A DNA stretch of 64,000 nucleotides from Microcoleus sp. (GCA_042408215.1 JAYFMW010000006.1:896001-960000), one strand, 5' to 3'. Positions 35,882 to 62,108 are shown, numbered from the stretch's first letter. Translations and numbers: made by a program. The notes: generated from the sequence alone by a model not told the origin.

Positions 35882-37186
35882 TCAAACTATTTTATTAATG
35901 GCCGGCTCTTGCACTGAATCGCAATTTTTTAATAGGGACAATCCGAAGAAAATTCGCAAACCCCAAATTTCAAACCAAGGCAAACCCCATCCCAATTTCA
36001 TCTTGAGGATAAAATACTTTTCAAATGCTGCTTTTGCCCAGTTTACCCAGCGTCCTTGCAAAGCATAAGAGTAACGCCGTTTACCTGTTTTTGGATCTGG
36101 TAAAACGGGGGCGGCAACATAGACAATGCCCGTATCGCCAAATTCAGCAAAACAAATCGCTTCCAAAGTTGGTGTTTTCCAACTATTTGCGATCGCACCT
36201 AATCTCACCCCAATATTGTTAGTCACGGCTAATCCCATTGCTTCCGTCATTTGTCCAGTTTTGGGTAATCCCAGCCCAGAGATTGCTTTGTTGTCGGGCA
36301 ATTCCACGCTGACACCAAGGGCATAAACTGAGGAAAATTGAGGATGTTCGTAGGTAGGTAATACGGGAATAAACCCTTTTTCATTTCCCAATCCAGGTAC
36401 TTTTTGGATAAAATCTACTCCTCGAAAAGCTGGCAGAATCATGGCATATTCAAAGGGAAGTTTTCGCCCATCAGCAAGCGCGATCGCTTCGGCATCAACT
36501 GAGGTAATTTGAGCGTTAGTTATTGCCTGAATTCCTCTTTTTTTCATCAGGTTTTCCGTGAATTCTTGAGAGTTACTTAATCCATCTAAACCTAAATGTC
36601 CCAGATAAGGTTCTGGTGTCACAAAAGTAATTGATACTTGCTCTCGCAAACCTCTGCGCCGCAACTCCCACTCTGCCATAAATAAAAACTCATAAGCTGG
36701 CCCAAAACAACTCACTCCTGCCATTGCTCCTACCACTAAATGACGGGGATTGTCTAAGAATTTTAGCCATGCTGTTCGCGCTTCTAAAGCATGATGGGGA
36801 GAGCAAACTGAGTGCGTATAACCCCCCTCTGGCCCAAGTCCGGGGACAGCATCAAATGCAAAAGAAGCACCTGTGGCGATCGCCACATAATCATAATCAA
36901 TAATCCGATTTTCTGCAACAGTGATGCGTTTAGTTTCAGGGTCAAAATCTGTGATTTTTCCTAGTATCCATTCAATCCCGTGTCGCTGAGTTAATTCAGG
37001 TACCTTTAATTGAATGTCTTCTAGGGGGTTAAGATTCAGCGCTACCCGGACCAACCCAGGAATAAAAGTAAATTCGGGGCGATCGGAAATTAACGTCACC
37101 TGATGTTCCTTCGGCAGCAGATGTCGCAGTTCGTAAGCAGTGGGAAGTCCCCCCAATCCCGCGCCAATTACAACCACTTTTGCCAT
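35882..37186 (-). CDS. sqr: Sulfide:quinone oxidoreductase, type I-like
   Basis: GAGLGGLPTAYELRH, HSVC, SCFGPAYEF, PKTGQMTE, AICFAEFGD, with three conserved Cys. Confidence 0.88.
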   Translation of the reverse strand: MAKVVVIGAGLGGLPTAYELRHLLPKEHQVTLISDRPEFTFIPGLVRVALNLNPLEDIQLKVPELTQRHGIEWILGKITDFDPETKRITVAENRIIDYDYVAIATGASFAFDAVPGLGPEGGYTHSVCSPHHALEARTAWLKFLDNPRHLVVGAMAGVSCFGPAYEFLFMAEWELRRRGLREQVSITFVTPEPYLGHLGLDGLSNSQEFTENLMKKRGIQAITNAQITSVDAEAIALADGRKLPFEYAMILPAFRGVDFIQKVPGLGNEKGFIPVLPTYEHPQFSSVYALGVSVELPDNKAISGLGLPKTGQMTEAMGLAVTNNIGVRLGAIANSWKTPTLEAICFAEFGDTGIVYVAAPVLPDPKTGKRRYSYALQGRWVNWAKAAFEKYFILKMKLGWGLPWFEIWGLRIFFGLSLLKNCDSVQEPAINKIV

Positions 37187-37390
37187 TTTTTTGATTTCCT
37201 TTTTCTGTGCGATGGCAAGCGTCGCAGCTTGCGGATTTTTGTAAAGGTAGTATTCCTTTTTTTGCTTTACTTCATATAATTATGACCTACAAAACGCACA
37301 TTAAACATAAATATGTTGTTGTGCTTTAGCGCTCTAAGGTATTGAGTATTTTTACTTAGTTCACCCCTAAAAATTAATTTTTTAACTTGC

Positions 37391-37419
37391 TTGACAATAT
37401 GACTATGTGGTTATATACT
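37391..37419 (+). promoter_or_regulatory. Sigma70-type promoter for the hdr cluster
   Basis: TTGACA-17 nt-TATACT, 55 nt upstream of the hdrC1 ATG. Confidence 0.65.
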
Positions 37420-37473
37420 GAGCAAATAGGCAACGGGCCTAACCTCAAGTAGCTCAAATAGGGGATATACATA

Positions 37474-38181
37474 ATGGGCAAGCTATTTAACGAGCTTAAA
37501 CAAGACATTTTGTACCAGCACGGCATGAATGCCTGCCTGAATTGCGGCATATGCACAGCAGTTTGTCCAGCGGCAGAGTTTTATGACTACTCTCCCAGAG
37601 AGGTGATGAACATTTGCCAATCTGAAGCTGACGATCTAATAGAAGAGTTACTTAAGTCAGACAAAATTTGGTATTGCGGGCAATGTTTTTCCTGTAAAAC
37701 CAGGTGTCCAAGAGGTAATAATACCGCCAATGTTATTCTGGCATTGCGCCGACTTTCCGTTCGTCACGGTTACTTTGCCGAGTCAGAAAAAGGCAGACAG
37801 CAATTGTTTGCCAAGCGAGTATTTGGGGAAAATATGCTGAAACGAGGTTATACCTTGCTGGCAGAAAATATCACCCCCGCCCACTTCCCAGAACTCGGAG
37901 AAAACTGGGAATACTATTACGAACACATGGCGGAAATGCGCGAATGGTGGGATGTGCCGATGGACTTGAAAAATAGTGCAGGTTCCCACCGAGTTATTCC
38001 TGAAAAAGACATGGAAGAATTGCGGGCAATTTATCAAGCAACCGGGGCGATCGAGTTAATGGATGCCGTAGAAAAAGGCATGGAAAAGAAACTCGGTAGC
38101 AAAGAAGAAGTCGAAAAATTCTGGGAAAACTGGGTAGAAACTGCTGATAGCAGAAACTACGAAATGGACGAAAATAAATAA
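37474..38181 (+). CDS. hdrC: Heterodisulfide reductase subunit C-like (HdrC1)
   Basis: CLNCGICTAVCP...SPR...IWYCGQCFSCKTRCPRG. Confidence 0.85.
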   Translation: MGKLFNELKQDILYQHGMNACLNCGICTAVCPAAEFYDYSPREVMNICQSEADDLIEELLKSDKIWYCGQCFSCKTRCPRGNNTANVILALRRLSVRHGYFAESEKGRQQLFAKRVFGENMLKRGYTLLAENITPAHFPELGENWEYYYEHMAEMREWWDVPMDLKNSAGSHRVIPEKDMEELRAIYQATGAIELMDAVEKGMEKKLGSKEEVEKFWENWVETADSRNYEMDENK

Positions 38182-38192
38182 GGAGAAAAATT

Positions 38193-39104
38193 ATGCAGAC
38201 CGTCAATAGCCTTAGCAATGTAAATAGCAGTCTTGATGCCACAGAAACGGCAGGACTCATCTATATGCGCGAAGAAGAAAAATTAGCGCATGATGTGTAT
38301 GTCACCCTGTACCAGCAGTGGGGATTGTCTACTTTTAACAACATCGCAAATAGCGAAAATCGTCACGAGAATAAGATTGAAACACTGCTCAATAGCTATC
38401 AGATTTCAGATTCAGTAGGTGATAATCCGGTTGGTGTTTTTGTCAATCCAGATTTACAACAATTGTACAACAATCTGGTAGCGCAAGGGAGTCAATCGCT
38501 GACTGAAGCCCTGAAGGTAGGAGTTTTAATTGAGGAGACTGACATTGCCGATTTGCAAACGCGAATTGCCCAAACAGATAACGCAGACATTCAACAAGTA
38601 TATCAACAGCTTTTAAGTGGATCGAATAATCACCTGAGTGCATTTACTTCAAACTTGACTGGCGAAACGGTTAATACCAACTCGTCTAGTTGTCCAACAA
38701 ATCAGACTCAGGGAACAACAACAGATGACACCCTAACTGGGGGGAGATGTAATCAAATGTTAGTTGGGAATCGTGGCGGCGATTTACTGACAGGAGAATT
38801 AGGAAATAATAACGTTGTTCGGGGTGGTGCTAACTCAAGATATAGCACAGATTTTTTGTTAAATTCGCCGAGTCAAATTAACAACTATCAAGTACAGGAA
38901 TTTGAGCAGAATTATCGAAATTTAGATCGGAATTTTGCGGCTCAAAACCTGCCCATTGGCTCATGCAATGCCGGGAGGAGCAGTAACTTATCTACGAACA
39001 ACTTGGGGACAGGCTTTTCTGCCAATCAAACCCAGATTGGTACTCTTAATATGAGGCCGACCAATGATTGTAATACCCAAGGTTTAATTTGCGTTAATTC
39101 CTGA
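38193..39104 (+). CDS. DUF2202 ferritin-like protein with a low-complexity C-terminal tail
   Basis: MREEEKLAHDVY, SENRH, IEETDIADL, SNNHLSAF. Confidence 0.8.
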   Translation: MQTVNSLSNVNSSLDATETAGLIYMREEEKLAHDVYVTLYQQWGLSTFNNIANSENRHENKIETLLNSYQISDSVGDNPVGVFVNPDLQQLYNNLVAQGSQSLTEALKVGVLIEETDIADLQTRIAQTDNADIQQVYQQLLSGSNNHLSAFTSNLTGETVNTNSSSCPTNQTQGTTTDDTLTGGRCNQMLVGNRGGDLLTGELGNNNVVRGGANSRYSTDFLLNSPSQINNYQVQEFEQNYRNLDRNFAAQNLPIGSCNAGRSSNLSTNNLGTGFSANQTQIGTLNMRPTNDCNTQGLICVNS

Positions 39105-39164
39105 ATTAACATCAACATCAACAGAAACTCCGAATCAAAAGACAATAAATAAGGACAAAACATA

Positions 39165-40211
39165 ATGAAAGTAACAAGACAAAATCTGGTTTGGGAAAAA
39201 CACCAAAAGCAGGTTCCAACAGTCGATGATGAAGGCGGCAAATTGTGGGGATGCTTCCGCAGTTGCTTTCTCCAAAGTGCCGCACCATACACCGAAGGGA
39301 TTGCCTATAAAATATTAAAAAACGATTTGGGCATGGACTTGCGGGAAGCACCCGGACATACTTCTTGTGGCGCAATTGGCTATCACGGAGATGTGTCAAA
39401 CCTCGAAACTCAAATGGTAGTTGCAGCGCGGAATTTTTCCGTAGCCCATCACGAATTAGGTGTTGATAATCTCTTCTCATTCTGTGTCACTTCTTTTGCG
39501 AATTACACAGAAATGATCAAACTCTGGGAAGAAGAACCAGAGTTGCGAGAATACACCGAAAAAACCTTAAAAGAAACCACCGGACGAGAATTTTGGGTTC
39601 CCCATGTTTCCGGGGGAAGACCATCTGTTGTTCATGCTTCCGATGTTTTCTATGCCAATCGGTATAAACTAGCCGCCAAAGCGAAATATAGCCTGAAGGG
39701 AATTAAAGCAGTCGATCACATCGGATGTCACTACGGAAAAATCTTTCCGGGTGAAGCAATGGGTGGGGTGGAATTTCCCCAAGTTTTAGTAGGATTACTG
39801 GCAGCTTTTGGTGCAGAAATTGTTGACTATCCAGAAAGAAGACATTGCTGTGGGATGGGTTTTCGCCAGTGTGCTTTTCCCGAAAACAGAGACTACACCG
39901 CAAGTAACGTCTACAAGAAAATGAAAGGTCTCAAAGAAGCGCACCCAGACTGCAATTTGATTCTCACTAACTGTCCCGGATGTACGGTATTTTTGGATGC
40001 TGAACAAGGAACGATTAAAGAAGTTTTGGAAGAAGAATTTAACGTCAGCGTTCTGGATTACGCACAATTGACTGGGTTAATGTTAGGCTATGACCCATTT
40101 AAGGATTGCGGACTGAATGCCAAGGCGGTTGAAATCGAGCCTTTGCTGGATAAAATCGGCATTCCTTACGATAAATCTAAGACTGCTGAACAACGCCGAA
40201 GACCATTTTAA
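39165..40211 (+). CDS. hdrB: Heterodisulfide reductase subunit B-like (HdrB1)
   Basis: CCG-domain motifs RSC, TSCG, HIGCH, HCCGMG, NCPGC. Confidence 0.85.
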   Translation: MKVTRQNLVWEKHQKQVPTVDDEGGKLWGCFRSCFLQSAAPYTEGIAYKILKNDLGMDLREAPGHTSCGAIGYHGDVSNLETQMVVAARNFSVAHHELGVDNLFSFCVTSFANYTEMIKLWEEEPELREYTEKTLKETTGREFWVPHVSGGRPSVVHASDVFYANRYKLAAKAKYSLKGIKAVDHIGCHYGKIFPGEAMGGVEFPQVLVGLLAAFGAEIVDYPERRHCCGMGFRQCAFPENRDYTASNVYKKMKGLKEAHPDCNLILTNCPGCTVFLDAEQGTIKEVLEEEFNVSVLDYAQLTGLMLGYDPFKDCGLNAKAVEIEPLLDKIGIPYDKSKTAEQRRRPF

Positions 40212-40335
40212 GAGGTGAGAAACCGGGTTTCTTCCTGGGCACAAAGTTTTCTGGTAAAACCTAACCATAAACCCGGTTTCTTTTCAACCAATCAAATAAA
40301 CCCGGTTTCTTTAATTAACTATAAAGGTAAAAAAC

Positions 40336-41406
40336 ATGAACAAACAAGTGGTCGTAATTGGTGGTGGTCCTGCTGGTCTAGCAGCGGCTGGAAAACTGCA
40401 AGACTTTGGCTATGATGTAGTTTTAATCGAGAAACAAGCCGAAGTTGGGGGACATTTAAACAAGTGGTATAAAGTGTTTCCTGATTTTACCGATGCTTCA
40501 GAAATTACCGCCAATCTCAAAGCTGGTTTAGGGAATACCAGAATTGTAAATAATGCTACGGTGACAGAGATTAAAGGTTCTGCTCCTAATTTTCAAGTGA
40601 CGGTATCAACGGGAGAAGAAATTGAGGCAGCGGCGATTTTAGTTTCGACAGGATATAAGCATTTTGATGCAACTTTAAAAGAAGAATACGGCTACGGAAT
40701 TTATGATAACTGCATCAATTCGGTAGAACTAGATGCCATGCTGAAGGCACAAAGCGTTAAAACCAGAAAGGGGAAAGTGCCGAAGAAAGTAGCGCTGATT
40801 CATTGCGTGGGTTCTCGTGATGAGAAGGTGGATAATAATTACTGTTCGCGAGTTTGCTGCACGAATGCCATTAAGGTAGGAATTGAGATTAAAGAACAGA
40901 ATCCCGATTGTGAAATTTACTGCCTTTATATGGATATTCGGGTGTTTGGTCGCGGTTATGAGGAACTGTACAGAACTTCTCAACAAGAGTTTGGAGTGCA
41001 GTTTCTTCGGGGTCGGCTTTCTGAAGCGGGTGAGAAAAATGATGGCAGTTTATTGTTGCGGCTAGAAGATACGTTAACGGCAAAACCGATGCGGTTGACG
41101 GTCGATCTTTTGGTTTTGATGGTGGGGATGGAGGGTAATACCGAGTTATCTGACGTGGCCGGTTTAACCTTGGGTTGCGATCGCTTCTATGCCACTGCCC
41201 ATCTGCAATATTCTAACAATCATTCTGCTCGATCGGGTATTTTTCTCGCCGGGGCAGCAACGGGGCCAAAAGCGATTATGGAATCCATTACCGATGGCCG
41301 ATCGGCGGCGGCAGAAATTGCCAGTTTTGTAGCGAGTAATCAAGCAAATTTGGCATCCAACCTGAATGGAAAAGCAGTAACAAAAATGGCAGCATCTCTG
41401 AAGTGA
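40336..41406 (+). CDS. hdrA: Short HdrA-like flavoprotein (FAD plus one 4Fe-4S; no ferredoxin inserts)
   Basis: GGGPAG, EK..VGG, HCVGSRD...YCSRVCC, YMDIR..GRGYEE, GIFLAG..GPK. Confidence 0.88.
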   Translation: MNKQVVVIGGGPAGLAAAGKLQDFGYDVVLIEKQAEVGGHLNKWYKVFPDFTDASEITANLKAGLGNTRIVNNATVTEIKGSAPNFQVTVSTGEEIEAAAILVSTGYKHFDATLKEEYGYGIYDNCINSVELDAMLKAQSVKTRKGKVPKKVALIHCVGSRDEKVDNNYCSRVCCTNAIKVGIEIKEQNPDCEIYCLYMDIRVFGRGYEELYRTSQQEFGVQFLRGRLSEAGEKNDGSLLLRLEDTLTAKPMRLTVDLLVLMVGMEGNTELSDVAGLTLGCDRFYATAHLQYSNNHSARSGIFLAGAATGPKAIMESITDGRSAAAEIASFVASNQANLASNLNGKAVTKMAASLK

Positions 41407-41417
41407 GGTAAACAACA

Positions 41418-42008
41418 ATGGCAACTAAGAATAAGAAAAAATTTGTCTTTGGTCTGAAAGTTGATCGTCAACTCGATGGCGATCAAATGAACTCCGATTT
41501 TATTAAGAAAGTTCTGGCTGAAGGTGGCCAAGGTGCGGCGATCGCGGCTTGTATGCAATGTGGCACTTGTAGCGGTGGCTGTACCAATATTGACCTGATG
41601 GATATGTCCCCCCGAACCCTAATTTTAATGGTGCAAAGAGGGGAATGGGAAAAGGTACTTCAAAGCAATGCTTTGTGGATGTGTAGTTCCTGCTACATCT
41701 GTACCTCTCGATGTCCGCGTGGGGTGCGTCCTTCTGATGTGATTGAAGCGGTAAAAGCACTCGCAATTCGCCAAGGAATCGAGAACGATTCTACCCGATT
41801 CAATCAGATATTTGTCGAGTTAGTTCAGAAACGAGGCATTTTGTTTGAACCGGAATTAATGCACAAATATGGCGGTTTACCAGCCATGATCGAACAAGCA
41901 GAATTGGGAATTAAATTAGCTTTAAAAGGCAAAATGTCACCATTCCCAGAAAACGTAAAAGATCCCAAAAAATTTAGTGAAGCATTAGAAAAGGCAAAAA
42001 AACCATGA
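41418..42008 (+). CDS. hdrC: Heterodisulfide reductase subunit C-like (HdrC2)
   Basis: CMQCGTCSGGC...LWMCSSCYICTSRCPRG. Confidence 0.88.
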   Translation: MATKNKKKFVFGLKVDRQLDGDQMNSDFIKKVLAEGGQGAAIAACMQCGTCSGGCTNIDLMDMSPRTLILMVQRGEWEKVLQSNALWMCSSCYICTSRCPRGVRPSDVIEAVKALAIRQGIENDSTRFNQIFVELVQKRGILFEPELMHKYGGLPAMIEQAELGIKLALKGKMSPFPENVKDPKKFSEALEKAKKP

Positions 42009-42883
42009 AATCAACCACGAAATATTCTTACTATCCCGGATGTAGTCTGCATACCACAGCTAAAGAGTTTGATATCTCAACTAGAGTGGTAATGCAGGAA
42101 TTAGGAATTGAACTAGAAGACCTCAAAGACTGGTCTTGTTGTGGCGGTTCCATCGCGGCGAGTGTTTCTCACGATGTTGGTATGGCAATGGCGGCGAGAA
42201 ATGTCGCTTTAGCCCAAAAACAAAATCTCGATTTATTAGCATCTTGTTCGGGGTGTTACAACAAGTCAGCAAGGGCGCTGAAGGCATTAAAAGAACCCAC
42301 CGAAAAAGATAGAATTATGGCTATTATGTCGGATATGGGGATCGATGTTTCTGACTATAACATCCGGGTCAGAAATGTGGTGGATGTGTTAGTAAATGAT
42401 GTGGATATTGCCTCGCGAGTAAAAAAGCCATTAACAGGTTTAAAAGTTGCCTGTTATTATGGATGTCTGTTAACTAGACCGGCAGATATCACGGGTTGGG
42501 ATTCGCCGATGTTCCCGACATCAATGGATAGATTATCTGAAATTTGTGGGGCGGAAGTAGTAGATTTTCGATCGAAAACTAAGTGCTGCGGTGGCCCGAT
42601 TCTGGTATCCAAAGAAGAGGTCGCGTTTGACCTTACGAAGAAACTCTTGGATGAGGCCCAATCTCTGGGTGCAGATTGTATTGTTTTGGCTTGTCCGTTG
42701 TGCGACACTAACCTAGAACTGCGCCAGTCGGATATCGAGAAAAAATACAACGTTTCTTACAATTTGCCAATTCTCTATATCACCGAAATCATCGGATTGG
42801 CTTTAGGAATGAAACCGAGTAAATTGGGGATGAACAAGCACATTGTTTCAGCACAACCCGTCCTCAAAAAATTGGGTTTATAA
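42005..42883 (+). CDS. hdrB: Heterodisulfide reductase subunit B-like (HdrB2)
   Basis: YYPGCSL, WSCCG, CSGC, YYGCLL, KCCGG, ACPLC. ATGA overlap with hdrC2. Confidence 0.9.
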   Translation: MKSTTKYSYYPGCSLHTTAKEFDISTRVVMQELGIELEDLKDWSCCGGSIAASVSHDVGMAMAARNVALAQKQNLDLLASCSGCYNKSARALKALKEPTEKDRIMAIMSDMGIDVSDYNIRVRNVVDVLVNDVDIASRVKKPLTGLKVACYYGCLLTRPADITGWDSPMFPTSMDRLSEICGAEVVDFRSKTKCCGGPILVSKEEVAFDLTKKLLDEAQSLGADCIVLACPLCDTNLELRQSDIEKKYNVSYNLPILYITEIIGLALGMKPSKLGMNKHIVSAQPVLKKLGL

Positions 42884-42892
42884 ACCATAAAA

Positions 42893-43188
42893 ATGAAACG
42901 TAAACAGCCAATAAATTTAACGATTTATCTTCGAGCAATTGTGACTTTAGGACTTTTAAGTGCTTGGAGTTTAGTCACATTCACCGGATTTCTGCTGTGG
43001 TTGATTCCCCGGGTCAAAAGGTAGGTCATGGCTTTCTATTTTGGGGATTAACCAGACATGGATGGGGTGATATTCATTTCATCATTAGCTTAGTTGCCTT
43101 CGGTTTGACCGTGATTCATATTATCCTGTATTGGCGAGCTTTAAGCAAATTAGTTCGATATTTAATCACGGTTCATACTTCTCTCTAA
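42893..43188 (+). pseudogene. DUF4405-like small membrane protein, frameshift at about 43010
   Basis: MKRKQP...FTGFLLWLIPR then (G)QKVGHGFLFWGLTRHGWGDIH in another frame. One G is missing in CCCCGGG, which may be a sequencing error. Confidence 0.65.
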
Positions 43189-43204
43189 CTTCGAGCTTGA
43201 CATT

Positions 43205-43759
43205 ATGAACAACTACAAACTCCAGAGAAACAATCATAGTACAGTTGTGAAGTGGGTTATAGCAGGAATTATAATCATCAGTAATGGCATCGTTTTTTCC
43301 TGCTTTTCCCCTTTAAAAGCACTGTCTCAAACTTCCTTAGACACTAAGACGCAACAGGCAATGATTGACGCGATTAATGATGAGTATCGCTCCAGAGCAT
43401 TGTATGATGCTGTCCTGCAAAAATTTGGGTCTCTCCGCCCTTTTAGCAACATTGTCCAAGCGGAAAATAACCATGTTAATCTTTGGATTTCCTTGTTTGC
43501 TAAGTATGGAATGGCTGTACCGACGGATTCTTTTGCCGGCAAAATGTCGGTTCCTAATACCTTACAAGCGGCCTGTCAAGCTGGGGTTGAAAATGAAATT
43601 GCTAACGTGCAAATGTACGATCGCTTTTTAGGTTTTGTCACCCAGCCAGATTTGCAGGCAGCTTTTACCCAACTGCGCCAAGTCTCTCAGGAAAAGCATT
43701 TAGCCGCCTTCCAGCGCTGTCATAATCGACCTGGTGTCGGTCAAGGTCGCAATTTTTAG
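43205..43759 (+). CDS. Exported/anchored ferritin-like (DUF2202-like) protein
   Basis: N-terminal hydrophobic segment; DEYRSRALY, AENNH, EIANVQMY, SQEKHLAAF. Confidence 0.75.
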   Translation: MNNYKLQRNNHSTVVKWVIAGIIIISNGIVFSCFSPLKALSQTSLDTKTQQAMIDAINDEYRSRALYDAVLQKFGSLRPFSNIVQAENNHVNLWISLFAKYGMAVPTDSFAGKMSVPNTLQAACQAGVENEIANVQMYDRFLGFVTQPDLQAAFTQLRQVSQEKHLAAFQRCHNRPGVGQGRNF

Positions 43760-43850
43760 TGATGACATGATTGTTCAAAACCGACTCAAATTTTAGCTTT
43801 TGATCGAATCGATCGGAAAAAATCTCTGTTCATTTAAACCAGTAATTATC

Positions 43851-44057
43851 ATGTTTAGCAATGTGGGAAGCCCAGATCGAATCGTTCGCTTTTTATTAGC
43901 AGCAATTCTGCTTTACAGGGGTTTGAGTATTTACCAAGGTACTGCCTTGGGAATTGGATTAGATATTGCCTCAGCTTTGCTGGCTTTCAGCGCTTTGTTT
44001 GGCTTTTGTGGCATCTATCGCGTGCTGGGGATTAGCACTTGCAAATCTCCCAACTGA
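43851..44057 (+). CDS. DUF2892 (YgaP-like) membrane protein
   Basis: NVGSPDRIVR...GFCGIYRVLGISTC. Confidence 0.8.
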   Translation: MFSNVGSPDRIVRFLLAAILLYRGLSIYQGTALGIGLDIASALLAFSALFGFCGIYRVLGISTCKSPN

Positions 44058-44111
44058 CTTGTGTAATTTTCCGTTAAATTCCGACAACTATCAACACTCT
44101 AAAAAACAATA

Positions 44112-44645
44112 ATGGATAATAGTTTTCCTCTCGAAAGTCCTTCCATGTCTCGCCGACAGTTGCTCAATTTTCTAACTGGTACTGTCGTTGCATCTACTGC
44201 CGGTGCCGCACTTTATCCAGTCGTGAAATATTTTATCCCCCCATCAGAAAGCAGCGAAGGGGGAGCGATTATCGCCAAAGATATCTTAGGAAATCCCATT
44301 CCCGCCAGCCAAATTTTAGCCGAACCTGTGGGAACTCGCGCTTTAGTGGCGGGGTTAGCTGGCGAACCTACTTACTTAATTGTTCAAAAAGATAGTATGA
44401 TCGATCCGGTGGGAATTGTTGATAACTGCACCCATTTAGGCTGTACTTTTCCTTGGAATGGAACTGACCAAGAATTTCAATGTCCCTGTCATGGTTCTCG
44501 CTACAGTGCTGACGGTTCTGTATTACGGGGCCCGGCTCCTCTGCCTCTAAAATTAGTTAATGTTGCCGTCAAAGAAAATGCCATTTTGATTTCTCCTTGG
44601 ACAGAAATTGACCCCCGCACCGGCGAAACTCCTTGGTGGGTTTAA
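44112..44645 (+). CDS. petC: Cytochrome b6f Rieske iron-sulfur subunit paralog
   Basis: Tat-like SRRQLLN, CTHLGC and CPCHGS boxes, GPAPLPL, C-terminal PWW. Confidence 0.92.
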   Translation: MDNSFPLESPSMSRRQLLNFLTGTVVASTAGAALYPVVKYFIPPSESSEGGAIIAKDILGNPIPASQILAEPVGTRALVAGLAGEPTYLIVQKDSMIDPVGIVDNCTHLGCTFPWNGTDQEFQCPCHGSRYSADGSVLRGPAPLPLKLVNVAVKENAILISPWTEIDPRTGETPWWV

Positions 44646-44694
44646 ATCCAGGAATTGAACAACAAATAAAATCATCAACAACCGGAAAAAATAG

Positions 44695-45138
44695 ATGTTT
44701 CAAAGCGTCACTGAATCCCTAGCTATTGGTAATGTTACCTCATCGGAAGAACTGAGCGAAATTTACCAAAAAGGCTACCGGACAATCATCGATTTATGTA
44801 CCGCGGCAGAAGGAAACCAACTCAATGCAGAGGAAGTTAAACAACTAGGGTTTGATTATATCAGCTTACCCGTTGATAGACAAAACCTCAAACCGGAAAT
44901 TCTGCAAGGATTTATGCAGGCTGTTGATTCCCAGAACCAGCCCATTTATACCCGCTGTGCATCAGGTTTGCGAGCGGGAGTAATGACTCTATTAACTTTA
45001 GCAAATCAAGAAAATTGGACGGAACAGCAGTATTTAGAACATCGGCAAGCTTTGGGAATAGAACACAAGCCGAATTGTCCTTTAGAAGCCTTTGCTCATG
45101 AGTATTTTATCAACTCACAAAATCAAGTTAAATCTTAG
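44695..45138 (+). CDS. DUF442/PTP-like putative sulfurtransferase
   Basis: GYRTIIDL and the CASGLRAG active-site loop. Confidence 0.7.
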   Translation: MFQSVTESLAIGNVTSSEELSEIYQKGYRTIIDLCTAAEGNQLNAEEVKQLGFDYISLPVDRQNLKPEILQGFMQAVDSQNQPIYTRCASGLRAGVMTLLTLANQENWTEQQYLEHRQALGIEHKPNCPLEAFAHEYFINSQNQVKS

Positions 45139-45149
45139 GAGGATTTGCC

Positions 45150-45656: not shown

Positions 45657-45735
45657 TTCCCGTTATTACTGCTAGTTGGGTAGGGTGCGTGGCAGCCACG
45701 CACCCTACTATTGATGTTCATCTACTAATACAATT

Positions 45736-53049: not shown

Positions 53050-53259
53050 GGAATTCGGGAACCGATCTTTGGCTCAATTCAGGGTCATCAAAATCCGATC
53101 GCCGCCGCAGTAGTGCCAACCTCAGCCGCGATCGGTTTGCATTTCTATCCAATTTGGGAAGCCAGTTCGATCGGACAAGGTAGCTTTTCTGAAGGAATGC
53201 TCTTGGGAATTTCTGGTACCTTCTATTTCATGCTTTCCCTACGGGCACAGCATATTTAG
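53050..53259 (+). pseudogene. psbA: Internally deleted remnant of an atypical psbA (D1)
   Basis: GIREPIFGS...[20 protein letters not shown] joined directly to [25 protein letters not shown]. No start codon. Confidence 0.85.
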
Positions 53260-53693: not shown

Positions 53694-55038
53694 TTGACAC
53701 TCCCCAGCCTAAAGGCGTGGGGATTCTTTGTTCATAGAGCTAACGTGCTGCGGACAGGATTTCTCCAACCAGAGTAGAGGTCAATTCTCCCAAAGCGTTG
53801 CTTGCGTTAAGCGCAAAGGTTCCGGTATGCCCTACCGTACCCAATCCTCGACTCAGGATATTTCTAGCTGCGTTAAAATCTCTATCCATTACACAGCCAC
53901 ACTTGCAAACGTGCGTCCTAGTGGATAGCGTTTTCTTCACAATTGCACCGCAGCTAGAGCATTCTTGGCTAGTGTATTGCGGATTTACCGCAACCGTAAC
54001 TCTTTCAAATACTTGACCGAAATATTCAATCCAGACACGGAACTGATACCAAGAAGCATCGTTAATAGACTTAGCTAGACAATGATTTTTCACCATATTT
54101 TTAATTCTCAAATCTTCGTAAGCTATCAAGTCGTTTGACTGAACTACGCACCGCGCTAATTTCACAGCATGGTCTTTGCGTTGCCTACTTATTTTGAGAT
54201 GGCGTTTTCCTAAAATCTGTCTAGCTTTGCCTCTATTTTTTGAACCTTTTACTTTCCTAGATACACGACGATGAGAACGTCTGAGAACTTTTTCACCTTT
54301 TCGTAAGAATTTAGGATTTTCAACCATCACTCCGTTGGAATCGGTGTAATATTCCTTCAATCCTACGTCTAATCCGATGGTATTTCCAGAAGGCTCTGTG
54401 TTTTCCTTTCGATCAACATCGACACAGAATTGGACATACACGCCGTCTGCACGTTTTACCAATCTTACCCGTTTTATTTGGGCGATTTGATAGAAATGCA
54501 AGTCGCGTGTGCCTTTCAACTTGAGTTTGCCAATTCCTTTTTTGTCGGTAAACTTTATTGATTTTCTGTCATCCGCAAGTTTCCAACCAGTTGATTTATA
54601 CTCAACAGAGCGACAGTCTTTCTGGAATTGTGGATATCCTTTTTTACCAGGAATTGACTTTTTGCAGTTCTCGTAAAATCGGGAGATAGCAGACCAGGCT
54701 CGTTCAGCACTGGATTGTCTAGCTTGAGAGTTAAGTTCGTCGGCAAACGGGAAATCACGAGCCAATACAGCACAATATTTATTCAAATCGTACTTATCTA
54801 TTTTTTTGTTGTCCATCCAATAGCGCAAACAGCTATTGCGGACAAATTGTGCTGTACGAATCGCTTCATTTACTGCTGCAATCTGACTTGATTTTCCGTA
54901 AGCTTTGAACTCAAAAACTAGCATCGCCTTACCTCCTGCCTTATACTAGATCTTTTAGCACAAGATTTGCTGGTATCGTAACAAAGGTTTACAATTAAAG
55001 CCGTCCTAAAAGGACGGGGTTTTAAACCCAATTTCCTG
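53694..55038 (-). mobile_element. IS200/IS605-family (IS1341-type, tnpB only) element
   Basis: Left end TTAT|CAGGAAATTGGGTTTAAAACCCCGTCC; right end GAATCCCC..GGGGAGTGTCAA. No tnpA. Confidence 0.9.
53740..54924 (-). CDS. tnpB: RNA-guided endonuclease TnpB
   Basis: RuvC D (GLDVG), E (AYEDL) and D (DRDFNAA), with Zn finger CSSC/CKC. Confidence 0.93.
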   Translation of the reverse strand: MLVFEFKAYGKSSQIAAVNEAIRTAQFVRNSCLRYWMDNKKIDKYDLNKYCAVLARDFPFADELNSQARQSSAERAWSAISRFYENCKKSIPGKKGYPQFQKDCRSVEYKSTGWKLADDRKSIKFTDKKGIGKLKLKGTRDLHFYQIAQIKRVRLVKRADGVYVQFCVDVDRKENTEPSGNTIGLDVGLKEYYTDSNGVMVENPKFLRKGEKVLRRSHRRVSRKVKGSKNRGKARQILGKRHLKISRQRKDHAVKLARCVVQSNDLIAYEDLRIKNMVKNHCLAKSINDASWYQFRVWIEYFGQVFERVTVAVNPQYTSQECSSCGAIVKKTLSTRTHVCKCGCVMDRDFNAARNILSRGLGTVGHTGTFALNASNALGELTSTLVGEILSAAR

Positions 55039-56845: not shown

Positions 56846-58159
56846 TTATTTTTTCCACTGGATCAACTTGATGTAATCTCCTTCAAACTGCTCTCCTTTC
56901 AGCATCCGATTCCAATAAATCCAAGGCAAAGCAGTAGTTTTCATCTTCCACATAATCCAGCTTTCTTGCACAGGGTTGAGGGGAAAACTAGAAAGCACAG
57001 TACCACTATAACCATCAAATTCGGCCATGATTGTCTTGCCATAACCAGTGATTAAAGGACAGCAAGTATAGCCGTCATACTTATGTAATAATGGTTTGGA
57101 GTCTATTAAAGCTAGTAAATTTTCTGCTACGATCGGTGCTTGTTTGCGAGCTGCTGCTGCTGTCTTAGAAGTTGGCAGCGAAGAAGCATCCCCCAAGCTA
57201 AATACGTTGGGATATCGATTGTGCTGGAGCGTGTATTTATCTACATCTACCCAGCCATAGGAACTACCGGGAACGGCCAAAGGGCTTTGTTTAATAAAGT
57301 CAGGAGCGCTTTGCGGCGGTGTGACGTGAATCATTTCGTACTTGTGGGTGACCTCATCGACAACAGCACCGTTATCATCGAAAACATCAAAAACTGCTTC
57401 TTTGGTTTCAGGTTTAATTTCCTTCAAATTGTGCCGGAACTTAACATCAATTTCCCGTTGTTGGACGACTTTATCTAATAGTGATGAATACTCCGGTACG
57501 GAAAACATTTTGGTTGCTGGTGTGAGAAACATCACGTTAGTGCGCTGACGGACTCCCAATTTACTGCGGAAGGTATCATCTGCCATGTACATGACTTTTT
57601 GCGGCGCACCACCACATTTTACCGGAGTGTTGGGAAAGGTAAATAGAGCATTTCCACCTTGGAAATTTTTGATTAGTTCCCAGGTATAAGGTGCGTAATT
57701 AGGAGCATAATTGCTAGTAACACCATCTTTTCCGAGCGCTTCTCTCAGTCCTTTAATTAAATGCCAGTCCAACTGAATGCCGGGACTGACAATTAAGTAA
57801 TCATACTCAACCAGGATGCCTTCTTTGGTGAGGACGGCATTGTTTTCTGGGTCTAATTTAACCACTCGGTCTGCGATCCAAGTCGCTTGTCGAGGAATGA
57901 AATCTTTTTTATCCCTCACTGTATCCTCAATTTGGAATACTCCTCCGCCTGTCAGCGTCCAACCGGGTTGGTAATACTGCTTCTTCGATGGCTCGATGAT
58001 GGCAATATCTAGGGATTTGTTTTTTTTCAATAACATAGAGGCGGTGGGAAGTCCGGCAGACCCGCCCCCGATGAAAACGATTTGGTGGTGCAGTGTCTTG
58101 GTAATGGCGGGGGTTGCGGACGCTGGAGTCTGGGACTGTTGGGAATTTGAGGTGATCAT
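56846..58159 (-). CDS. sqr: Sulfide:quinone oxidoreductase, type II (SqrB/SQRDL-like)
   Basis: YQPGWTL, KCGGAPQK, PTSKTAAA, YDGYTCCPLITG, AEF. Confidence 0.88.
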   Translation of the reverse strand: MITSNSQQSQTPASATPAITKTLHHQIVFIGGGSAGLPTASMLLKKNKSLDIAIIEPSKKQYYQPGWTLTGGGVFQIEDTVRDKKDFIPRQATWIADRVVKLDPENNAVLTKEGILVEYDYLIVSPGIQLDWHLIKGLREALGKDGVTSNYAPNYAPYTWELIKNFQGGNALFTFPNTPVKCGGAPQKVMYMADDTFRSKLGVRQRTNVMFLTPATKMFSVPEYSSLLDKVVQQREIDVKFRHNLKEIKPETKEAVFDVFDDNGAVVDEVTHKYEMIHVTPPQSAPDFIKQSPLAVPGSSYGWVDVDKYTLQHNRYPNVFSLGDASSLPTSKTAAAARKQAPIVAENLLALIDSKPLLHKYDGYTCCPLITGYGKTIMAEFDGYSGTVLSSFPLNPVQESWIMWKMKTTALPWIYWNRMLKGEQFEGDYIKLIQWKK

Positions 58160-58331: not shown

Positions 58332-58568
58332 GTTGAGTAAATCTACTTACCCCCGCTGCTAACTTTTTTGTTGCTATTGTCAAATTGTACAACTTAGCTT
58401 ACTATATGGCAATATAGGCAATTAATAAATATGCACTACTCCCGTGGCATATTTGAAAGCTAAGGAGGCTCTGCCTTCTTTCCGAGTTCCCTGGCTCAGC
58501 CAGGGAACTAGATCGCGATCGCCAGACATTCCATTAAGCAGGTAAAAACTTTACAAGGAGCCAGAAAT

Positions 58569-59273
58569 ATGCTATTTCGCCAAATGTATGACAACGAAAC
58601 CAGCACTTATACTTATTTAATTGCTGACGAAAACACCAAAGAAGCTGCTTTAGTCGATCCGGTGATCGAGCAAGTCGATCGTGACTTAAAGCTAATTCAA
58701 GAATTAGGACTAACTTTGCGCTATTGTTTGGAAACGCACATTCACGCCGATCACATTACGGGAACGGGTAAGTTGCGAGAAATCACAAATTGTGATGGCA
58801 TAGTGCCAGAAAATGCCCAAGTTGCTTGTGCTAACCGCTTGATTAAAGATGGGGAAATATTACAGCTAGGCGAGATTGAAATTAAAACGATCGCCACTTT
58901 AGGACATACCGACAGTCATAACTGTTACCTAGTCAATCAAAACCTATTGCTGACTGGAGATTCTTTGTTGATTCGCGGTTGCGGACGGACTGATTTCCAA
59001 AGCGGTAATCCGGGTTTGATGTACGACAACGTTACGCAAAAATTATTTACCTTACCCGATGAAACTTTAGTTTATCCCGGTCACGATTATAAAGGACATC
59101 TGGTTTCTACAATTGGCGAGGAAAAGCAATATAATCCCCGGTTTGTTGGCCAAGATCGGGCGAGTTTTATCGAACAAATGAATAACCTGAATCTGCCCAA
59201 TCCGAAGAAAATTGCGGAAGCAGTACCGGCGAATCAACAATGTGGGAAAATACCTGTGATCGCAGAAGTTTGA
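58569..59273 (+). CDS. Persulfide dioxygenase (ETHE1/Sdo-like MBL)
   Basis: TYTYL, ETHIHADHITG, GHT, GCGRTDFQ, YPGHDY, EEKQYNPR, AVPAN..CG. Confidence 0.9.
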   Translation: MLFRQMYDNETSTYTYLIADENTKEAALVDPVIEQVDRDLKLIQELGLTLRYCLETHIHADHITGTGKLREITNCDGIVPENAQVACANRLIKDGEILQLGEIEIKTIATLGHTDSHNCYLVNQNLLLTGDSLLIRGCGRTDFQSGNPGLMYDNVTQKLFTLPDETLVYPGHDYKGHLVSTIGEEKQYNPRFVGQDRASFIEQMNNLNLPNPKKIAEAVPANQQCGKIPVIAEV

Positions 59274-59284
59274 GGATTTAGATC

Positions 59285-59713
59285 GTGGCAAATGTGAACT
59301 GGGTAACAGCTTTAATTGGTGGCATCTTAATTGGGTTAAGTGCCACCGTCTTACTGGCATTTAATGGTCGAATTGCTGGTATTAGTGGAATTGTCAATGG
59401 TGCGATCGCCTTTTCCAAACGAGAAGTCTGGCGGTGGATCTTCATCCTGGGTATGTTGCTGGGTGGCATATTATACGAATATGGACTAGCATCTCAATTA
59501 ACTCCCACCGCGACATTGACTCCTTGGGCAATGATTATCGGCGGTTTTCTGGTTGGTTTTGGCACTAGAATGGGTAGCGGTTGCACTAGCGGTCATGGAG
59601 TTTGTGGGTTAGGCCGATTATCTATGCGATCGCTAGTGGCAGTTATCACCTTTATGATTACCGCCATCCTCACAGTTTTTGTTGTCCGTCACCTATTGCA
59701 GTTGAGTATATGA
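59285..59713 (+). CDS. YeeE/YedE sulfur-compound transporter subunit
   Basis: GRIAGISG and GSGCTSGHGVCG. Confidence 0.9.
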   Translation: MANVNWVTALIGGILIGLSATVLLAFNGRIAGISGIVNGAIAFSKREVWRWIFILGMLLGGILYEYGLASQLTPTATLTPWAMIIGGFLVGFGTRMGSGCTSGHGVCGLGRLSMRSLVAVITFMITAILTVFVVRHLLQLSI

Positions 59714-60123
59714 AAGAGAAGCTAATAGCGTTATTGTCAGGAGTGTTATTTGGTCTGGGACTGGGGTTTTCGCAGATGATCGATCGCCAGCGGGTACTAG
59801 GCTTTTTGGATGTCGCCGGTGCTTGGGACTCAACATTATTATTTGTGTTGGGTGGCGCGGTCACGGTGACAGTAATTGCCTTCCGATTTGTGCTGCGTCG
59901 CCCTCACCCAATCTTTGCTGACAAATTTAATTTACCAACTAAGAAAGACATCGACAAACCTTTAGTAATTGGGGCAGCTATTTTCGGTATCGGTTGGGGA
60001 ATTTGTGGATACTGTCCAGGGCCGGGGATCACTGCTTTAGTATTGGGTAATTGGAATCCGATTTTGTTTGTGGTGGCGTTCATTGCTGGTTCGCTGACCT
60101 ATAAAAACTTATCTGAAAAGTAA
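59710..60123 (+). CDS. YeeE/YedE partner subunit (DUF6691-like)
   Basis: FGLGL..SQM..VLGFLD..WD and FGIGWGICGYCPGP. ATGA overlap with the upstream gene. Confidence 0.88.
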   Translation: MKEKLIALLSGVLFGLGLGFSQMIDRQRVLGFLDVAGAWDSTLLFVLGGAVTVTVIAFRFVLRRPHPIFADKFNLPTKKDIDKPLVIGAAIFGIGWGICGYCPGPGITALVLGNWNPILFVVAFIAGSLTYKNLSEK

Positions 60124-60335
60124 TTTTTATATGAGTAGGGGTAGGGACACGGCAATGCCGTGTCCCTTTACGCAAAAAAAACCGGTTTCTTTGAAAAATC
60201 GTGGGTCTAGCCGAGAAATCTTGACGCAGAAACCGGGTTTTTGGCCCCGCTTGCGTAAGTCCTGAAATACAGATGTGGAGATAGTTTCATGCCCGGTACA
60301 GAAATATTAACTAATTCATAGTTTGATTGACTGAA

Positions 60336-62108
60336 ATGTTTGATAAAAAGACAATGGTTGAGCGATCGCAAAAGCAAAAATGGTTGGATCAATGGAGTAG
60401 TTTTCTTCCGATTTTGGATTGGGGTTTACACTATCGACGGGACTATTTGGTAGGAGATATCACTGCCGGAATTGTTGTTGGCACTGTGCTGATTCCCCAA
60501 GCAATGGCCTATGCTTTGTTAGCAGGTTTACCTCCCCAAATCGGGCTATATGCTAGTATTTTGCCCCTAGTGGTTTATGCCTTTCTTGGCAGCAGTCGTC
60601 TGATTTCGGTTGCCCCGGTAGCATTGGATTCGCTGATGGTTGCGGCGGCAATTGCTCCTCTAGCGACTGAAAATACACCGGAATATTTAGGATTGGCATT
60701 GTTGCTGGCACTAATGATTGGGGTGATTGACATTTTAATGGGTGTCTTTCGGTTAGGGTTTTTGGTGAATTTTCTTAGCCAAGCGGTGATTTCTGGCTTT
60801 ATCAGTGCGGCTGCAATTGTAATTGGTTTTAGTCAGGTTAAACATTTGTTAGGCTTGAAGATTCCACAAACAGAATCTTTTATTCAGTTACTAACTTATC
60901 TAGGAAAAGGAATTAGTGCAATTAATTGGCTTACTCTATCCTTGGGTTTATTCAGCATTCTCCTATTAGTCTATTTCCCAAACTGGTTGGGAAAACAACT
61001 CAATAAACGCGGATTTCAAGAGTTAACAATTATGCCACTTACTAAAAGTGCGCCTCTCCTCATCGTAGTTAGTAGTTCGTTGCTAGTCTGGTGCTTTCAC
61101 CTGGATCGAGTTGCGGGAGTGAAAGTCGTTGGTGATATCCCCAAAGGCTTACCTTCTCTCTCTTTTCCTGCCCTTGATGGCAATACGATTACTACATTAT
61201 TACCGGCGGCTTTGGCGATTAGTTTTGTAGGTTTCATGGAAGCCTATTCAGTTGGTAAGTTTTTGGCTAGTAAGCGACGCCAAAAAGTTGATGCCAACCA
61301 GGAATTTATTGCTTTGGGAGCCGCAAATATTAGTGCAGCTTTGACTGGAGGGTATCCGGTTACAGGAGGCGTAAGTCGATCGGGTGTGAACTTTTCTGCT
61401 AATGCTAATACTCCTTTAGCCTCGATAATTACGGCATTAATTGTGGCGCTTACCGTCATGTTTTTAACGCCGTTGTTTTACTTTTTACCACAAGCTTGTT
61501 TGGCGGCAATTATCGTGATGGCTGTTAGCAGTCTTTTAGATTTTGCAACACTGAAACGTTTATGGATATATAATCGTTCGGATGCGATCGCCTGGATCTC
61601 TGCATTTCTTGCCGTCTTAATCACCAGTGTGGAAAAAGGTATTTTGTTCGGTGCTGCTGTATCAATTCTATTACATTTATGGCGTACTAGCAAGCCGCAT
61701 ATCGCGGTGGTCGGTAGAGTTGGAAACAGCGAACATTTTCGCAATTTTTTGCGACACGAAGTTAAAACTTGTCCTCACGTTTTGGCAGTTCGGGTTGATG
61801 CTAGTCTTTACTTTGTGAATACTAAATATTTGGAGGATTACCTGCTCAAAGCGGTGAGCGATCGCCCAGATGTCAAATATTTATTACTGGTATGTAGTGC
61901 TGTGAATTCCATTGATGGTAGTGCTTTGGAAACGCTCAAAAGTTTGATTCTTGACTTAAATAATCGGGGAATTGAATTCTATATGTCTGAAGTCAAGGGC
62001 CCAGTGATGGATGGATTACTCAAAATTGGGTTTGTCGAGGAGTTAGGAAAAGACCATATTTTCCTAACTACTGACCAAGCAATGCGTTTTTTGGAGTGCG
62101 GGAATTAA
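60336..62108 (+). CDS. SulP family anion transporter with STAS domain
   Basis: GDITAG..IPQAMAYALLAGLPP..GLY, NQEFIALG, STAS (LYFVN, IDGSA). Confidence 0.92.
   Translation: MFDKKTMVERSQKQKWLDQWSSFLPILDWGLHYRRDYLVGDITAGIVVGTVLIPQAMAYALLAGLPPQIGLYASILPLVVYAFLGSSRLISVAPVALDSLMVAAAIAPLATENTPEYLGLALLLALMIGVIDILMGVFRLGFLVNFLSQAVISGFISAAAIVIGFSQVKHLLGLKIPQTESFIQLLTYLGKGISAINWLTLSLGLFSILLLVYFPNWLGKQLNKRGFQELTIMPLTKSAPLLIVVSSSLLVWCFHLDRVAGVKVVGDIPKGLPSLSFPALDGNTITTLLPAALAISFVGFMEAYSVGKFLASKRRQKVDANQEFIALGAANISAALTGGYPVTGGVSRSGVNFSANANTPLASIITALIVALTVMFLTPLFYFLPQACLAAIIVMAVSSLLDFATLKRLWIYNRSDAIAWISAFLAVLITSVEKGILFGAAVSILLHLWRTSKPHIAVVGRVGNSEHFRNFLRHEVKTCPHVLAVRVDASLYFVNTKYLEDYLLKAVSDRPDVKYLLLVCSAVNSIDGSALETLKSLILDLNNRGIEFYMSEVKGPVMDGLLKIGFVEELGKDHIFLTTDQAMRFLECGN

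Follow-up and report, generated by a model that had tools for sequence, protein, structure and literature searches.

We have identified an accessory island of ~28 kb (35812-63801) in a 64,000-nucleotide stretch of DNA from Microcoleus sp. (GCA_042408215.1 JAYFMW010000006.1:896001-960000; hereafter the window, whose numbering is used throughout). The island carries two types of sulfide:quinone oxidoreductase (SQR), a persulfide dioxygenase (Sdo/PDO) export module and a low-oxygen paralog of the Rieske subunit (PetC), together with a heterodisulfide reductase (Hdr)-like gene cluster, hdrC1-B1-A-C2-B2. Most of it is an assembly of known modules, and the unusual part is the hdr cluster. It encodes an LbpA-free variant of Hdr, uncharacterised and tightly tied to SQR. 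We hypothesize, at a probability of roughly 45%, that the island joins these modules to an Hdr-like complex that oxidizes SQR-made sulfane sulfur without oxygen, a direction that we infer. That Hdr has some role on SQR-made sulfane sulfur at low oxygen is, in our judgment, very probable.

The usual scheme of sulfide oxidation in cyanobacteria consists of SQR only and stops at elemental sulfur (S0). Some strains make thiosulfate or sulfite (PMC5776472; here and below, statements from cited papers refer to the portions of each source available to us), and in others S0 is reduced in darkness. An Hdr-like complex that is accompanied by SQR in 50 of 50 carriers is a concrete candidate for sulfite and thiosulfate formation or for dark S0 reduction, steps that bear on sulfur cycling in mats and on models of low-oxygen Proterozoic photosynthesis.

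The island is real and is one accessory unit, more than a chance grouping of genes. It is flanked by a copA-type P-ATPase gene and by a gene that, from its N-terminal sequence, we take to be CtpA-like; its ends are placed to within ~20 bp on the left and ~500 bp on the right. The window DNA was searched against five congeners, and an empty site was found in all four hdr-negative ones (G168, G007, G010, G006). In these the copA side (to ~35,811-35,827) sits 0.5-0.8 kb from the gene starting at 63,802, so the 28 kb is absent from them. The fifth (G018) holds a 14.6-kb arrangement at a different site, in the order sqrII, sdo-yeeE-yedE-sulP-petC-DUF442-DUF2214, sqrI and hdrC1B1AC2B2. The GC content of the island is 42.8% vs 45.1%, at the 3rd percentile of 28-kb windows. 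The stretch 33,010-52,872 is spanned in full by one DNA contig from a near-identical strain, and the left part of the island is therefore not a mis-assembly. No integrase was seen in the island. The host is a cyanobacterium with a 7.4-Mb genome (99.98% complete). Among 24 genomes of the same genus, hdrA was found in one; in another draw of 24, hdrB1, sqrI and sqrII were found in none. The named HdrA relatives nearest to this one come from Kamptonema and Microcoleus. A first-pass annotation of the window had proposed a single 26-kb island, a proposal that holds with slightly wider limits, and every gene that it named is present where it was placed and matches the family given.

Coupling of hdr to SQR was assessed in 401 genomes of the order (146 genera). 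An HdrB1 match occurred in 50 genomes (29 genera), type I sqr in 85, type II in 108 and both types together in 36. Any SQR was present in 50/50 hdr-positive vs 107/351 hdr-negative genomes (type I, 30/50 vs 55/351; type II, 42/50 vs 66/351), counts in which independence is overstated by the relatedness of the genomes, for which reason we attach no weight to p-values. The distance from sqr to hdrB1 was at most 5 kb in 22 of the 50 carriers and at most 10 kb in 29, with the two genes on different contigs in 15. Across the phylum, HdrA matched in 18 of 401 genomes, one of these matches being distant. PDO was found in 47/49 hdr-positive genomes, a figure with no background rate, so Hdr appears to add to PDO and not to replace it.

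Gene neighborhoods were compared in 31 related hdr loci with up to 10 kb of flanking DNA, a set that overlaps the genome collection used for the counts. The order C1-B1-A-C2-B2 was kept wherever the genes were visible. Neighbors included sqr (17 loci), petC (16), sdo (11), psbA (6) and acsF (5), as well as ho2, hemN, bchE-like and cydAB genes, several of which are low-oxygen genes. Named sources of HdrA include Sodalinema sp. and Coleofasciculus PCC 7420, and the hdr locus of Phormidium pseudopriestleyi is our L031. The hdr operon of an Actinomycetota record (L041) is 82-92% identical to its cyanobacterial counterpart, and this record is likely a mis-binned contig. In six records (L023, G256, G420, G485, G600, G581), a second hdrB1 copy (85-87%) lies apart from the operon, beside a NifX-like gene in L023.

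On a plasmid of strain PCC 7003, hdrC1B1AC2B2 is followed by sqr with 5 bp between hdrB2 and sqr. PCC 7002 plasmid pAQ7 has the same flanks and no hdr, and the ~200 bp upstream of its well-studied sqr (G0075) is a decayed hdrB2 3' end (L141:13798-14000). Because this remnant precedes sqr, hdr-sqr is the older state in this lineage, and the model strain PCC 7002 appears to have lost the hdr operon. A shared promoter with clean excision of hdr was considered for the two strains and rejected, as identity ends ~195 bp upstream of the antiporter gene. By source names, the cultured hdr carriers are PCC 7003, PCC 7420, PCC 7424 and PCC 7524; the question of Hdr function is therefore directly testable, and PCC 7003 (hdr-sqr) vs PCC 7002 (hdr lost) forms a natural comparison pair.

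The loss in PCC 7002 bears on a protective role, in which Hdr would serve thiol and persulfide homeostasis, clearing excess sulfane sulfur or repairing protein persulfides with no part in energy metabolism, and the island would be a detoxification kit. PCC 7002 detoxifies sulfide by SQR and PDO (PMC7042703) and has dispensed with hdr; co-occurrence is stronger with type II than with type I SQR; and a thioredoxin-reductase-like (TrxR-like) flavoprotein with a CxxC motif is encoded in the same gene run. That gene is present in only 3/31 loci, however, and a multi-Fe-S complex of five subunits would be an expensive means to what PDO and thiols do. We consider a protective role decidedly unlikely.

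The hdr cluster itself, which the first-pass annotation merely listed and which is the least understood part of the island, consists of hdrC1 (37474-38181; two [4Fe-4S] motifs), hdrB1 (39165-40211), a compact hdrA of 356 aa (40336-41406; FAD site, one [4Fe-4S] motif), hdrC2 (41418-42008; family match) and hdrB2 (42005-42883), all on the plus strand. HdrA aligns in one stretch with the sHdrA of a sulfur oxidizer (PDB 6TJR; 3-330 vs 2-338, E 4e-62), whereas it aligns with methanogen HdrA in two pieces, the ferredoxin insert being absent. Residues K409 and E356 (5ODC numbering) play a role in flavin bifurcation; HdrA has Lys and Asp at these positions, where 6TJR has Asn and Glu. The first CCG site of HdrB1 is degenerate (C34, S67-C68, C107-x-x-S110), with Ser for two ligands (TSC, CVTS) as in long proteobacterial B1 proteins, with which HdrB1 shares TSC and CxTSF. 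The second site of HdrB1 (C188, C228-C229, C270-x-x-C273) and both cysteine sets of HdrB2 are canonical, so that three of the four CCG sites in the two proteins are canonical.

Type I sHdr is defined as shdrC1B1AHC2B2 with LbpA and TusA/DsrE (PMC11094781). The distribution text of that paper names no cyanobacteria, and its HMSS2 table could list some. No sHdrH gene lies in the 11-bp gap between hdrA and hdrC2, and no conserved gene occurs there in the 31 loci. One TusA gene is present, on contig C3 and unlinked to hdr, and MvhD/FlpD was not found in this genome. Judged by its genes, the cluster resembles sHdr in layout but falls outside it, having no H, LbpA or DsrE and a B1 subunit that lies outside the sHdrB1-type clade. 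Prediction of a complex between HdrB1 and DUF442 without alignments scored 0.00 and gave no answer.

Relatives were sought among 1.84 billion representative sequences. The best HdrB1 match was a cluster named from Candidatus Altiarchaeales (72%), followed by a Bacteroidales cluster (43%); HdrA gave 64-94% identity within cyanobacteria and then 58% to Altiarchaeales. Among the best 120 matches to HdrB2 there were only close ones (at least 70%), and the named ones were cyanobacterial. A quick maximum likelihood tree of HdrB was built from 81 sequences, of which 39 were unnamed representatives hand-picked from 150 matches, with fragments excluded. The cyanobacterial B1 proteins formed a clade (support 99), joined by Altiarchaeales (100) and then by the Bacteroidales type (99), and the whole group was sister (Shimodaira-Hasegawa-like approximate likelihood ratio test, SH-aLRT, 98) to a clade with the proteobacterial long B1. 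In this tree the island HdrB1 is thus sister to, and not nested in, the sHdrB1-type clade, a reference (P0060 relatives and Acidithiobacillus ferrooxidans WP_180830595) that we take to be of this type from motifs and host groups and that is not biochemically proven. The HdrA tree agrees weakly, joining cyanobacteria and Altiarchaeales at 84. Adjacent Altiarchaeales accessions (ODS38557/38558 and ODS41743/41744) suggest that hdrA and hdrB1 are linked there. An HdrB-like gene on contig C14 of this genome forms a separate long branch, and presumably encodes an SdhE-type subunit. On a small A. ferrooxidans plasmid (L140:9605-13308), a lone long hdrB1 is accompanied by a GcvH-like gene, hemerythrins, a globin and hcp.

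These relationships bring in the opposite direction, in which Hdr would run reductively in dark anoxia, turning stored S0 or polysulfide into H2S as a fermentative electron sink, with SQR by day and Hdr by night forming a diel shuttle. Reduction of S-S bonds is canonical Hdr chemistry, three of the four CCG sites are canonical, and the relatives are found in anaerobes. In most of 49 loci of at least 9 kb (of 80), the Bacteroidales-type operon continues after C1-B1-A not with C2-B2 but with genes for a small ferredoxin and for a 610-aa protein whose N-terminus is hydrophobic. K409 is kept in 44/44 Bacteroidales-type and 5/5 Altiarchaeales-cluster HdrA proteins. Contig C5 of the Microcoleus genome carries genes that we take from their sequence to be PFOR-, PFL- and AdhE-like and hoxEFUYH; HoxYH without HoxEFU as a partner of Hdr was considered and rejected, since hoxE/F/U-like genes are present. 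Dark sulfur reduction is reported, in the titles of studies, for O. limnetica and M. chthonoplastes, and the co-occurrence with SQR fits this direction equally well. No module for electron input is apparent, however (no MvhD/FlpD, no ferredoxin insert in HdrA, and hox on another contig), the gene order and the B1 site follow oxidative sHdr, and the PetC and psbA paralogs to which hdr is linked indicate a tie to the light reactions. A reductive Hdr is on balance somewhat unlikely. In four of the 49 Bacteroidales-type loci (L093, L101, L103, L104), an SQR-like gene and two small conserved neighbors lie a few kb from hdrC1-B1-A, a hint of a sulfur link outside cyanobacteria too.

A shared regulatory site connects hdr with the sulfide genes. 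Motif discovery in 58 upstream regions returned TATA-N4-TATA as the top dyad. It occurs in 16/26 hdrC1 upstream regions, in 13 of these at 56-71 bp before the start, as compared with 6/2,575 upstream regions of this genome, 0/48 other upstream regions in the same loci and 0.8 expected by shuffling. With a matrix trained without hdr regions, 16/26 hdr regions scored above the 95th control percentile; the reverse matrix, trained on hdr, picks out the motif at numerous sqrII, sdo and petC genes. Between sqrII and sdo, the palindrome CTATAT-N4-ATATAG (58400-58417) is a candidate repressor site, the top motif match of the window and at the 99th percentile with either independently trained matrix. 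The motif resembles what we take to be the operator of BigR/SqrR-type ArsR repressors. No operator sequence is given in the available part of PMC10451225. In 3/31 loci an ArsR gene adjoins the cluster; within the island there is none, and the sole match in this genome is on contig C12 (30312-30656). The toolkit had been described as co-regulated, and the shared palindrome lends this some support, set against the absence of an ArsR gene from the island. In 4/31 loci (L025:12646-15354; also L023, L042, L050), a 900-aa protein with cNMP-binding, AAA and 4Fe-4S domains adjoins the hdr operon; it is a candidate redox sensor and was not found in this genome.

RNA data were available as assembled contigs, which speak to presence in RNA libraries only and carry no level, ranking or co-transcription. 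Twelve runs contain part of the sqrI-hdr stretch, and those with a small share of it (X5-X12) do not enter into any statement of habitat. In four sediment metatranscriptomes (X2-X5), the stretch from hdrC1 to hdrB2 is covered by contigs of close relatives, among them one that bridges hdrB1-hdrB2 over 3.2 kb; gaps at sqrI and petC in X2 and X3 are not evidence.

The mechanism that we propose for an oxidative Hdr is as follows. Both SQRs would pass electrons from H2S to plastoquinone and release polysulfide or persulfide, as expected for the family and the residues present. With oxygen, Sdo would turn persulfide into sulfite and then thiosulfate, as has been demonstrated for SQR and PDO of PCC 7002, and the thiosulfate would likely be exported by YeeE/YedE/SulP. 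Without oxygen, DUF442 or glutathione may bring sulfane sulfur to the degenerate HdrB1 site, from which electrons would follow the path B1-C1-A-A'-C2-B2 proposed for sHdr. With no LbpA, the canonical HdrB2 site could reduce a general S-S acceptor, such as persulfide, glutathione disulfide, thioredoxin or the housekeeping lipoyl arm, and any H2S released by Hdr would be recycled via SQR into the quinone pool. By analogy, the alternative PetC likely takes the place of the usual Rieske subunit at low oxygen, and hdr and sqr/sdo are probably under the control of a putative unlinked repressor acting at the TATA-N4-TATA site. Some cyanobacterial strains oxidize sulfide to thiosulfate or sulfite by way of a second enzyme that is hypothetical (PMC5776472). 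The thiosulfate producer is assigned to Sodalinema (PMC12694226). This genus is among the named sources of HdrA, although that particular strain is not.

What leads us to favor oxidation is a layout and a B1 site like those of sHdr, the regulatory site shared with sqr and sdo, the link to low-oxygen photosynthetic paralogs and the need for an oxygen-free partner of PDO. Several observations weigh against it. The 107 SQR-positive genomes without Hdr indicate that Hdr is not needed for SQR, kinship among genomes inflates the co-occurrence counts, 6/31 loci have neither sulfur nor low-oxygen neighbors, and DUF442 is present in only 7/31. The single GcvH-family (PF01597) gene of this genome lies between gcvT and gcvP, leaving no separate LbpA; of 49 other hdr-positive genomes, 48 have a single full-length GcvH-family copy and one has none. 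DsrE and DsrE2 were not found in this genome, and a DsrE match occurs in 12/49 hdr-positive genomes, two of the matches being strong and most weak, and one lying no more than 10 kb from hdr. At K409, HdrA retains Lys where 6TJR has Asn, and the second B1 site is canonical (CPGC) vs HDTGC in proteobacterial B1. The nearest relatives of Hdr outside cyanobacteria belong to Altiarchaeales and Bacteroidales, groups that are not known to oxidize sulfur. The window's own palindrome between hdrC1 and sqrI (~37401-37418) is degenerate and overlaps an 11-of-12 match to a sigma70-like promoter (TTGACA-17-TATACT; 37391-37419, plus strand; the best in 17 kb scanned); against the 2,575 controls this site is at the 97th percentile with a matrix from other hdr upstream regions and at the 81st with the non-hdr matrix. 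In the model of PMC12694226, the enzyme 'USO' oxidizes sulfide and delivers the electrons to b6f or plastocyanin, a role that a soluble Hdr does not obviously match, and Hdr could not be assigned to the exact strains with published physiology. The proposed role is argued from genes and sequence.

A more specific form of the oxidative reading is that the complex is a third, LbpA-free branch of sHdr-like complexes, present in ~1/8 of Cyanobacteriales genomes and common to Altiarchaeales, that forms a self-contained loop: B1 would oxidize persulfide to sulfite, B2 would reduce persulfide to H2S, and SQR would pass the H2S to plastoquinone. If true, the loop would be the missing oxygen-independent step, which would allow mat cyanobacteria to gain over two electrons from each sulfide and to release thiosulfate. 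We regard this form as unlikely.

Turning to the known modules, the type I sqr (35882-37186, minus strand) diverges from the hdr run and encodes three conserved cysteines (C128, C160, C345), which together with its similarity to type I enzymes assign it to that type. Its closest structures are the Acidithiobacillus and Aquifex SQRs (E 3e-88), and it is 59.6% identical to the pSYSM enzyme of Synechocystis 6803 and 54.7% to the plasmid SQR of PCC 7002. The other sqr (56846-58159, minus strand) is closest to human SQOR (E 3e-113), hence its assignment to type II, and has two catalytic Cys (C182, C366/C367). Two SQR types had been proposed, and the similarities and cysteine residues bear this out. 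Such pairs are already known, as seven cyanobacterial genomes have both types and 15 have sqr near low-oxygen psbA (PMC5061849), and a mat Phormidium transcribes both (PMC8651085). Type I SQR had also been taken as a sign of anoxygenic photosynthesis; it is not proof, given that the PCC 7002 enzyme is called type I and, with PDO, yields sulfite and thiosulfate for detoxification in addition to sulfane-sulfur signaling (PMC7042703). Divergent from the type II sqr, on the plus strand, are genes for Sdo (58569-59273; HIHADH motif), the YeeE-YedE split sulfur-compound transporter pair (59285-60123; PF04143, PF20398) and a SulP/STAS anion permease (60327-62108; TIGR00815 above cut-off).

The Rieske gene (44112-44645) encodes intact CTHLGC/CPCHGS ligands and is assigned by alignment as a low-oxygen PetC paralog; sulfide-specific tuning is a further claim that goes beyond this evidence. 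Its alignment places it with the copies in the islands at other loci and with that on pAQ7 of PCC 7002, where petC and DUF2892 stand beside sqr. The second petC of the genome (52% identical), upstream of petA on contig C17, means that the island copy is not the housekeeping one. The Rieske protein had been called dedicated to sulfide-driven electron flow, a view that is not supported: the DUF2892-petC-rhodanese grouping is that of the published microoxic cluster, in which psbA1-DUF2892-petC-rhodanese of Acaryochloris (AM1_0448-0451) and slr1181-slr1185 of Synechocystis are induced by low oxygen (PMC5295598). The same finding tells against the full first-pass reading, in which the genes form a single toolkit, induced together for anoxygenic photosynthesis, and PetC is tuned specifically to sulfide-derived electrons. 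Alternative PetC does occur in 43/49 hdr-positive genomes (no background rate) and 16/31 loci, petC and DUF2892 adjoin sqr on pAQ7, and some petC upstream regions have the palindrome. On the other side, the block responds to low oxygen alone in Acaryochloris and Synechocystis, the island psbA is a relic, and tblastn of this genome found no divergent full-length D1, Tll0287, TauE or BchE ortholog. The b6f complex, moreover, oxidizes plastoquinol whatever has reduced it. We consider the complete toolkit very improbable.

The remaining genes complete a plus-strand run of 18 genes (37,474-51,511; gaps of at most 124 bp). Within the hdr operon, after hdrC1, is a DUF2202 ferritin-like gene (38193-39104), inserted there in 2/31 related loci as well. 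Behind hdrB2 come a DUF4405 membrane-protein gene (42893-43197), frameshifted in this assembly (two tblastn pieces; 2-nt indel at 43014 relative to a near-identical strain), and a second ferritin-like gene (43205-43759; 7/31 loci) with weak similarity to the first (26% over 145 aa, E 2e-6), for which AlphaFold from the single sequence gave a pLDDT (predicted local distance difference test) of 41. A DUF2892/YgaP-like membrane domain (43851-44057; domain match) precedes petC, which is followed by a candidate DUF442 (Rhd442-like) sulfurtransferase (44695-45138), a NifX/NifB-like domain with a His-rich tail (45150-45656; domain match), a DUF2214 membrane protein (45736-46191; domain match), the TrxR-like flavoprotein (46204-47208; CMVC), an accessory PAS-PAS-GAF histidine kinase (47201-49537; a close ortholog, 81%, in 1/31 loci), an MBL-fold protein (49530-50369; 5/31), a single-domain rhodanese with a hydrophobic N-terminus that is likely exported (50413-50874) and a DUF3122 protein (50969-51511; 4/31). 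The ferritin-like, DUF4405, NifX-like, DUF2214, MBL-fold and DUF3122 genes were missing from the earlier list. Of three sulfurtransferase-like genes claimed, only two encode a Cys loop of the active-site type, namely DUF442 (RCASGLR) and the rhodanese (YCTSGYR); DUF2892 is no more than a 68-aa membrane domain.

The toolkit is also not uninterrupted, as ~5.3 kb (51.5-56.8 kb) of other genes separates its two parts. These comprise a nitronate monooxygenase/FabK-like flavoprotein gene (51447-52688, minus strand; 3/31 loci), a 69-codon psbA relic (53047-53253, plus strand) in which D1 residues ~61-96 are joined in frame to ~163-190, the remainder being lost and the D1 group not assignable, an IS605-family tnpB (53740-54924, minus strand; domain match), a radical SAM gene and terD. 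A second IS605-family tnpB (62147-63340, minus strand; domain match) lies near the right end.

Elsewhere in the genome, eight psbA copies lie in three tandem groups (C6:580493-585639, C3:410573-413007, C14:3353-5788); the three copies that were translated are identical. Like DUF4405, petA (C17:157876-158884) and one psbA copy (C14:3353-4433) appear to be split by a frameshift, perhaps through assembly indel errors. In the window outside the island, the open reading frames (ORFs) at 28366-29325 and 10872-11400 consist of tandem DNA repeats (~five copies of 61 codons and ~three of 32 codons) and probably represent repeat arrays; the second lies within a gene whose C-terminus resembles a tRNA synthetase. 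Two adjoining ORFs at 22419-24703 share an identical terminal 290-aa stretch, from a recent tandem duplication or an assembly repeat.

Among known systems, the type I sHdr-LbpA complex of Hyphomicrobium denitrificans, Aquifex and Acidithiobacillus (PMC11094781; PDB 6TJR) shares with the island cluster its gene order minus H, a compact HdrA, a degenerate first B1 site beside a canonical B2, nearby DUF442/Rhd442 in some loci and a sister position in the HdrB tree. It differs in that the island has no H, LbpA or DsrE and an unlinked TusA, a B1 that is 28-32% identical and ~100 aa shorter, and K409 kept; cyanobacterial Hdr is tied to SQR instead of Sox and has its nearest kin in Altiarchaeales and Bacteroidales. 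With methanogen HdrABC-MvhAGD (PDB 5ODC), the cluster has in common the FAD/[4Fe-4S] core of HdrA with K409, a canonical HdrB2 and HdrC. In contrast to that complex, its HdrA lacks three parts (N-terminal, ferredoxin and C-terminal), position E356 is occupied by Asp, there is no MvhD, and all NCBIfam equivalog scores are far below cut-off.

Genes of hdr have been noted without a function in Cyanobacterium DS4 (PMC12060301) and Phormidium pseudopriestleyi (PMC8002359). They comprise the same five-gene set or hdrA/B/C genes; unlike here, the available portions of those papers give no substrate, SQR link, phylogeny or regulatory site. The text of a bioRxiv survey of HdrA has no match to 'cyanobacteri', and in the cyanobacterial metagenome-assembled genomes of PMC13384644, as far as that source was available, only SQR was found. 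The low-oxygen cluster (PMC5295598) resembles the island in having DUF2892, an alternative petC and rhodanese-type genes in one run, with a second petC outside petC-petA; it differs in that the island has no intact low-oxygen psbA, only the 69-codon relic, and in that the island block stands directly behind the hdr operon. Finally, the SQR-PDO detoxification pathway of PCC 7002 (PMC7042703), heterotrophic bacteria and mitochondria is matched by the type II SQR divergent from sdo-yeeE-yedE-sulP and by the expected products, sulfite and thiosulfate, whereas the island adds to it a second SQR type and Hdr.

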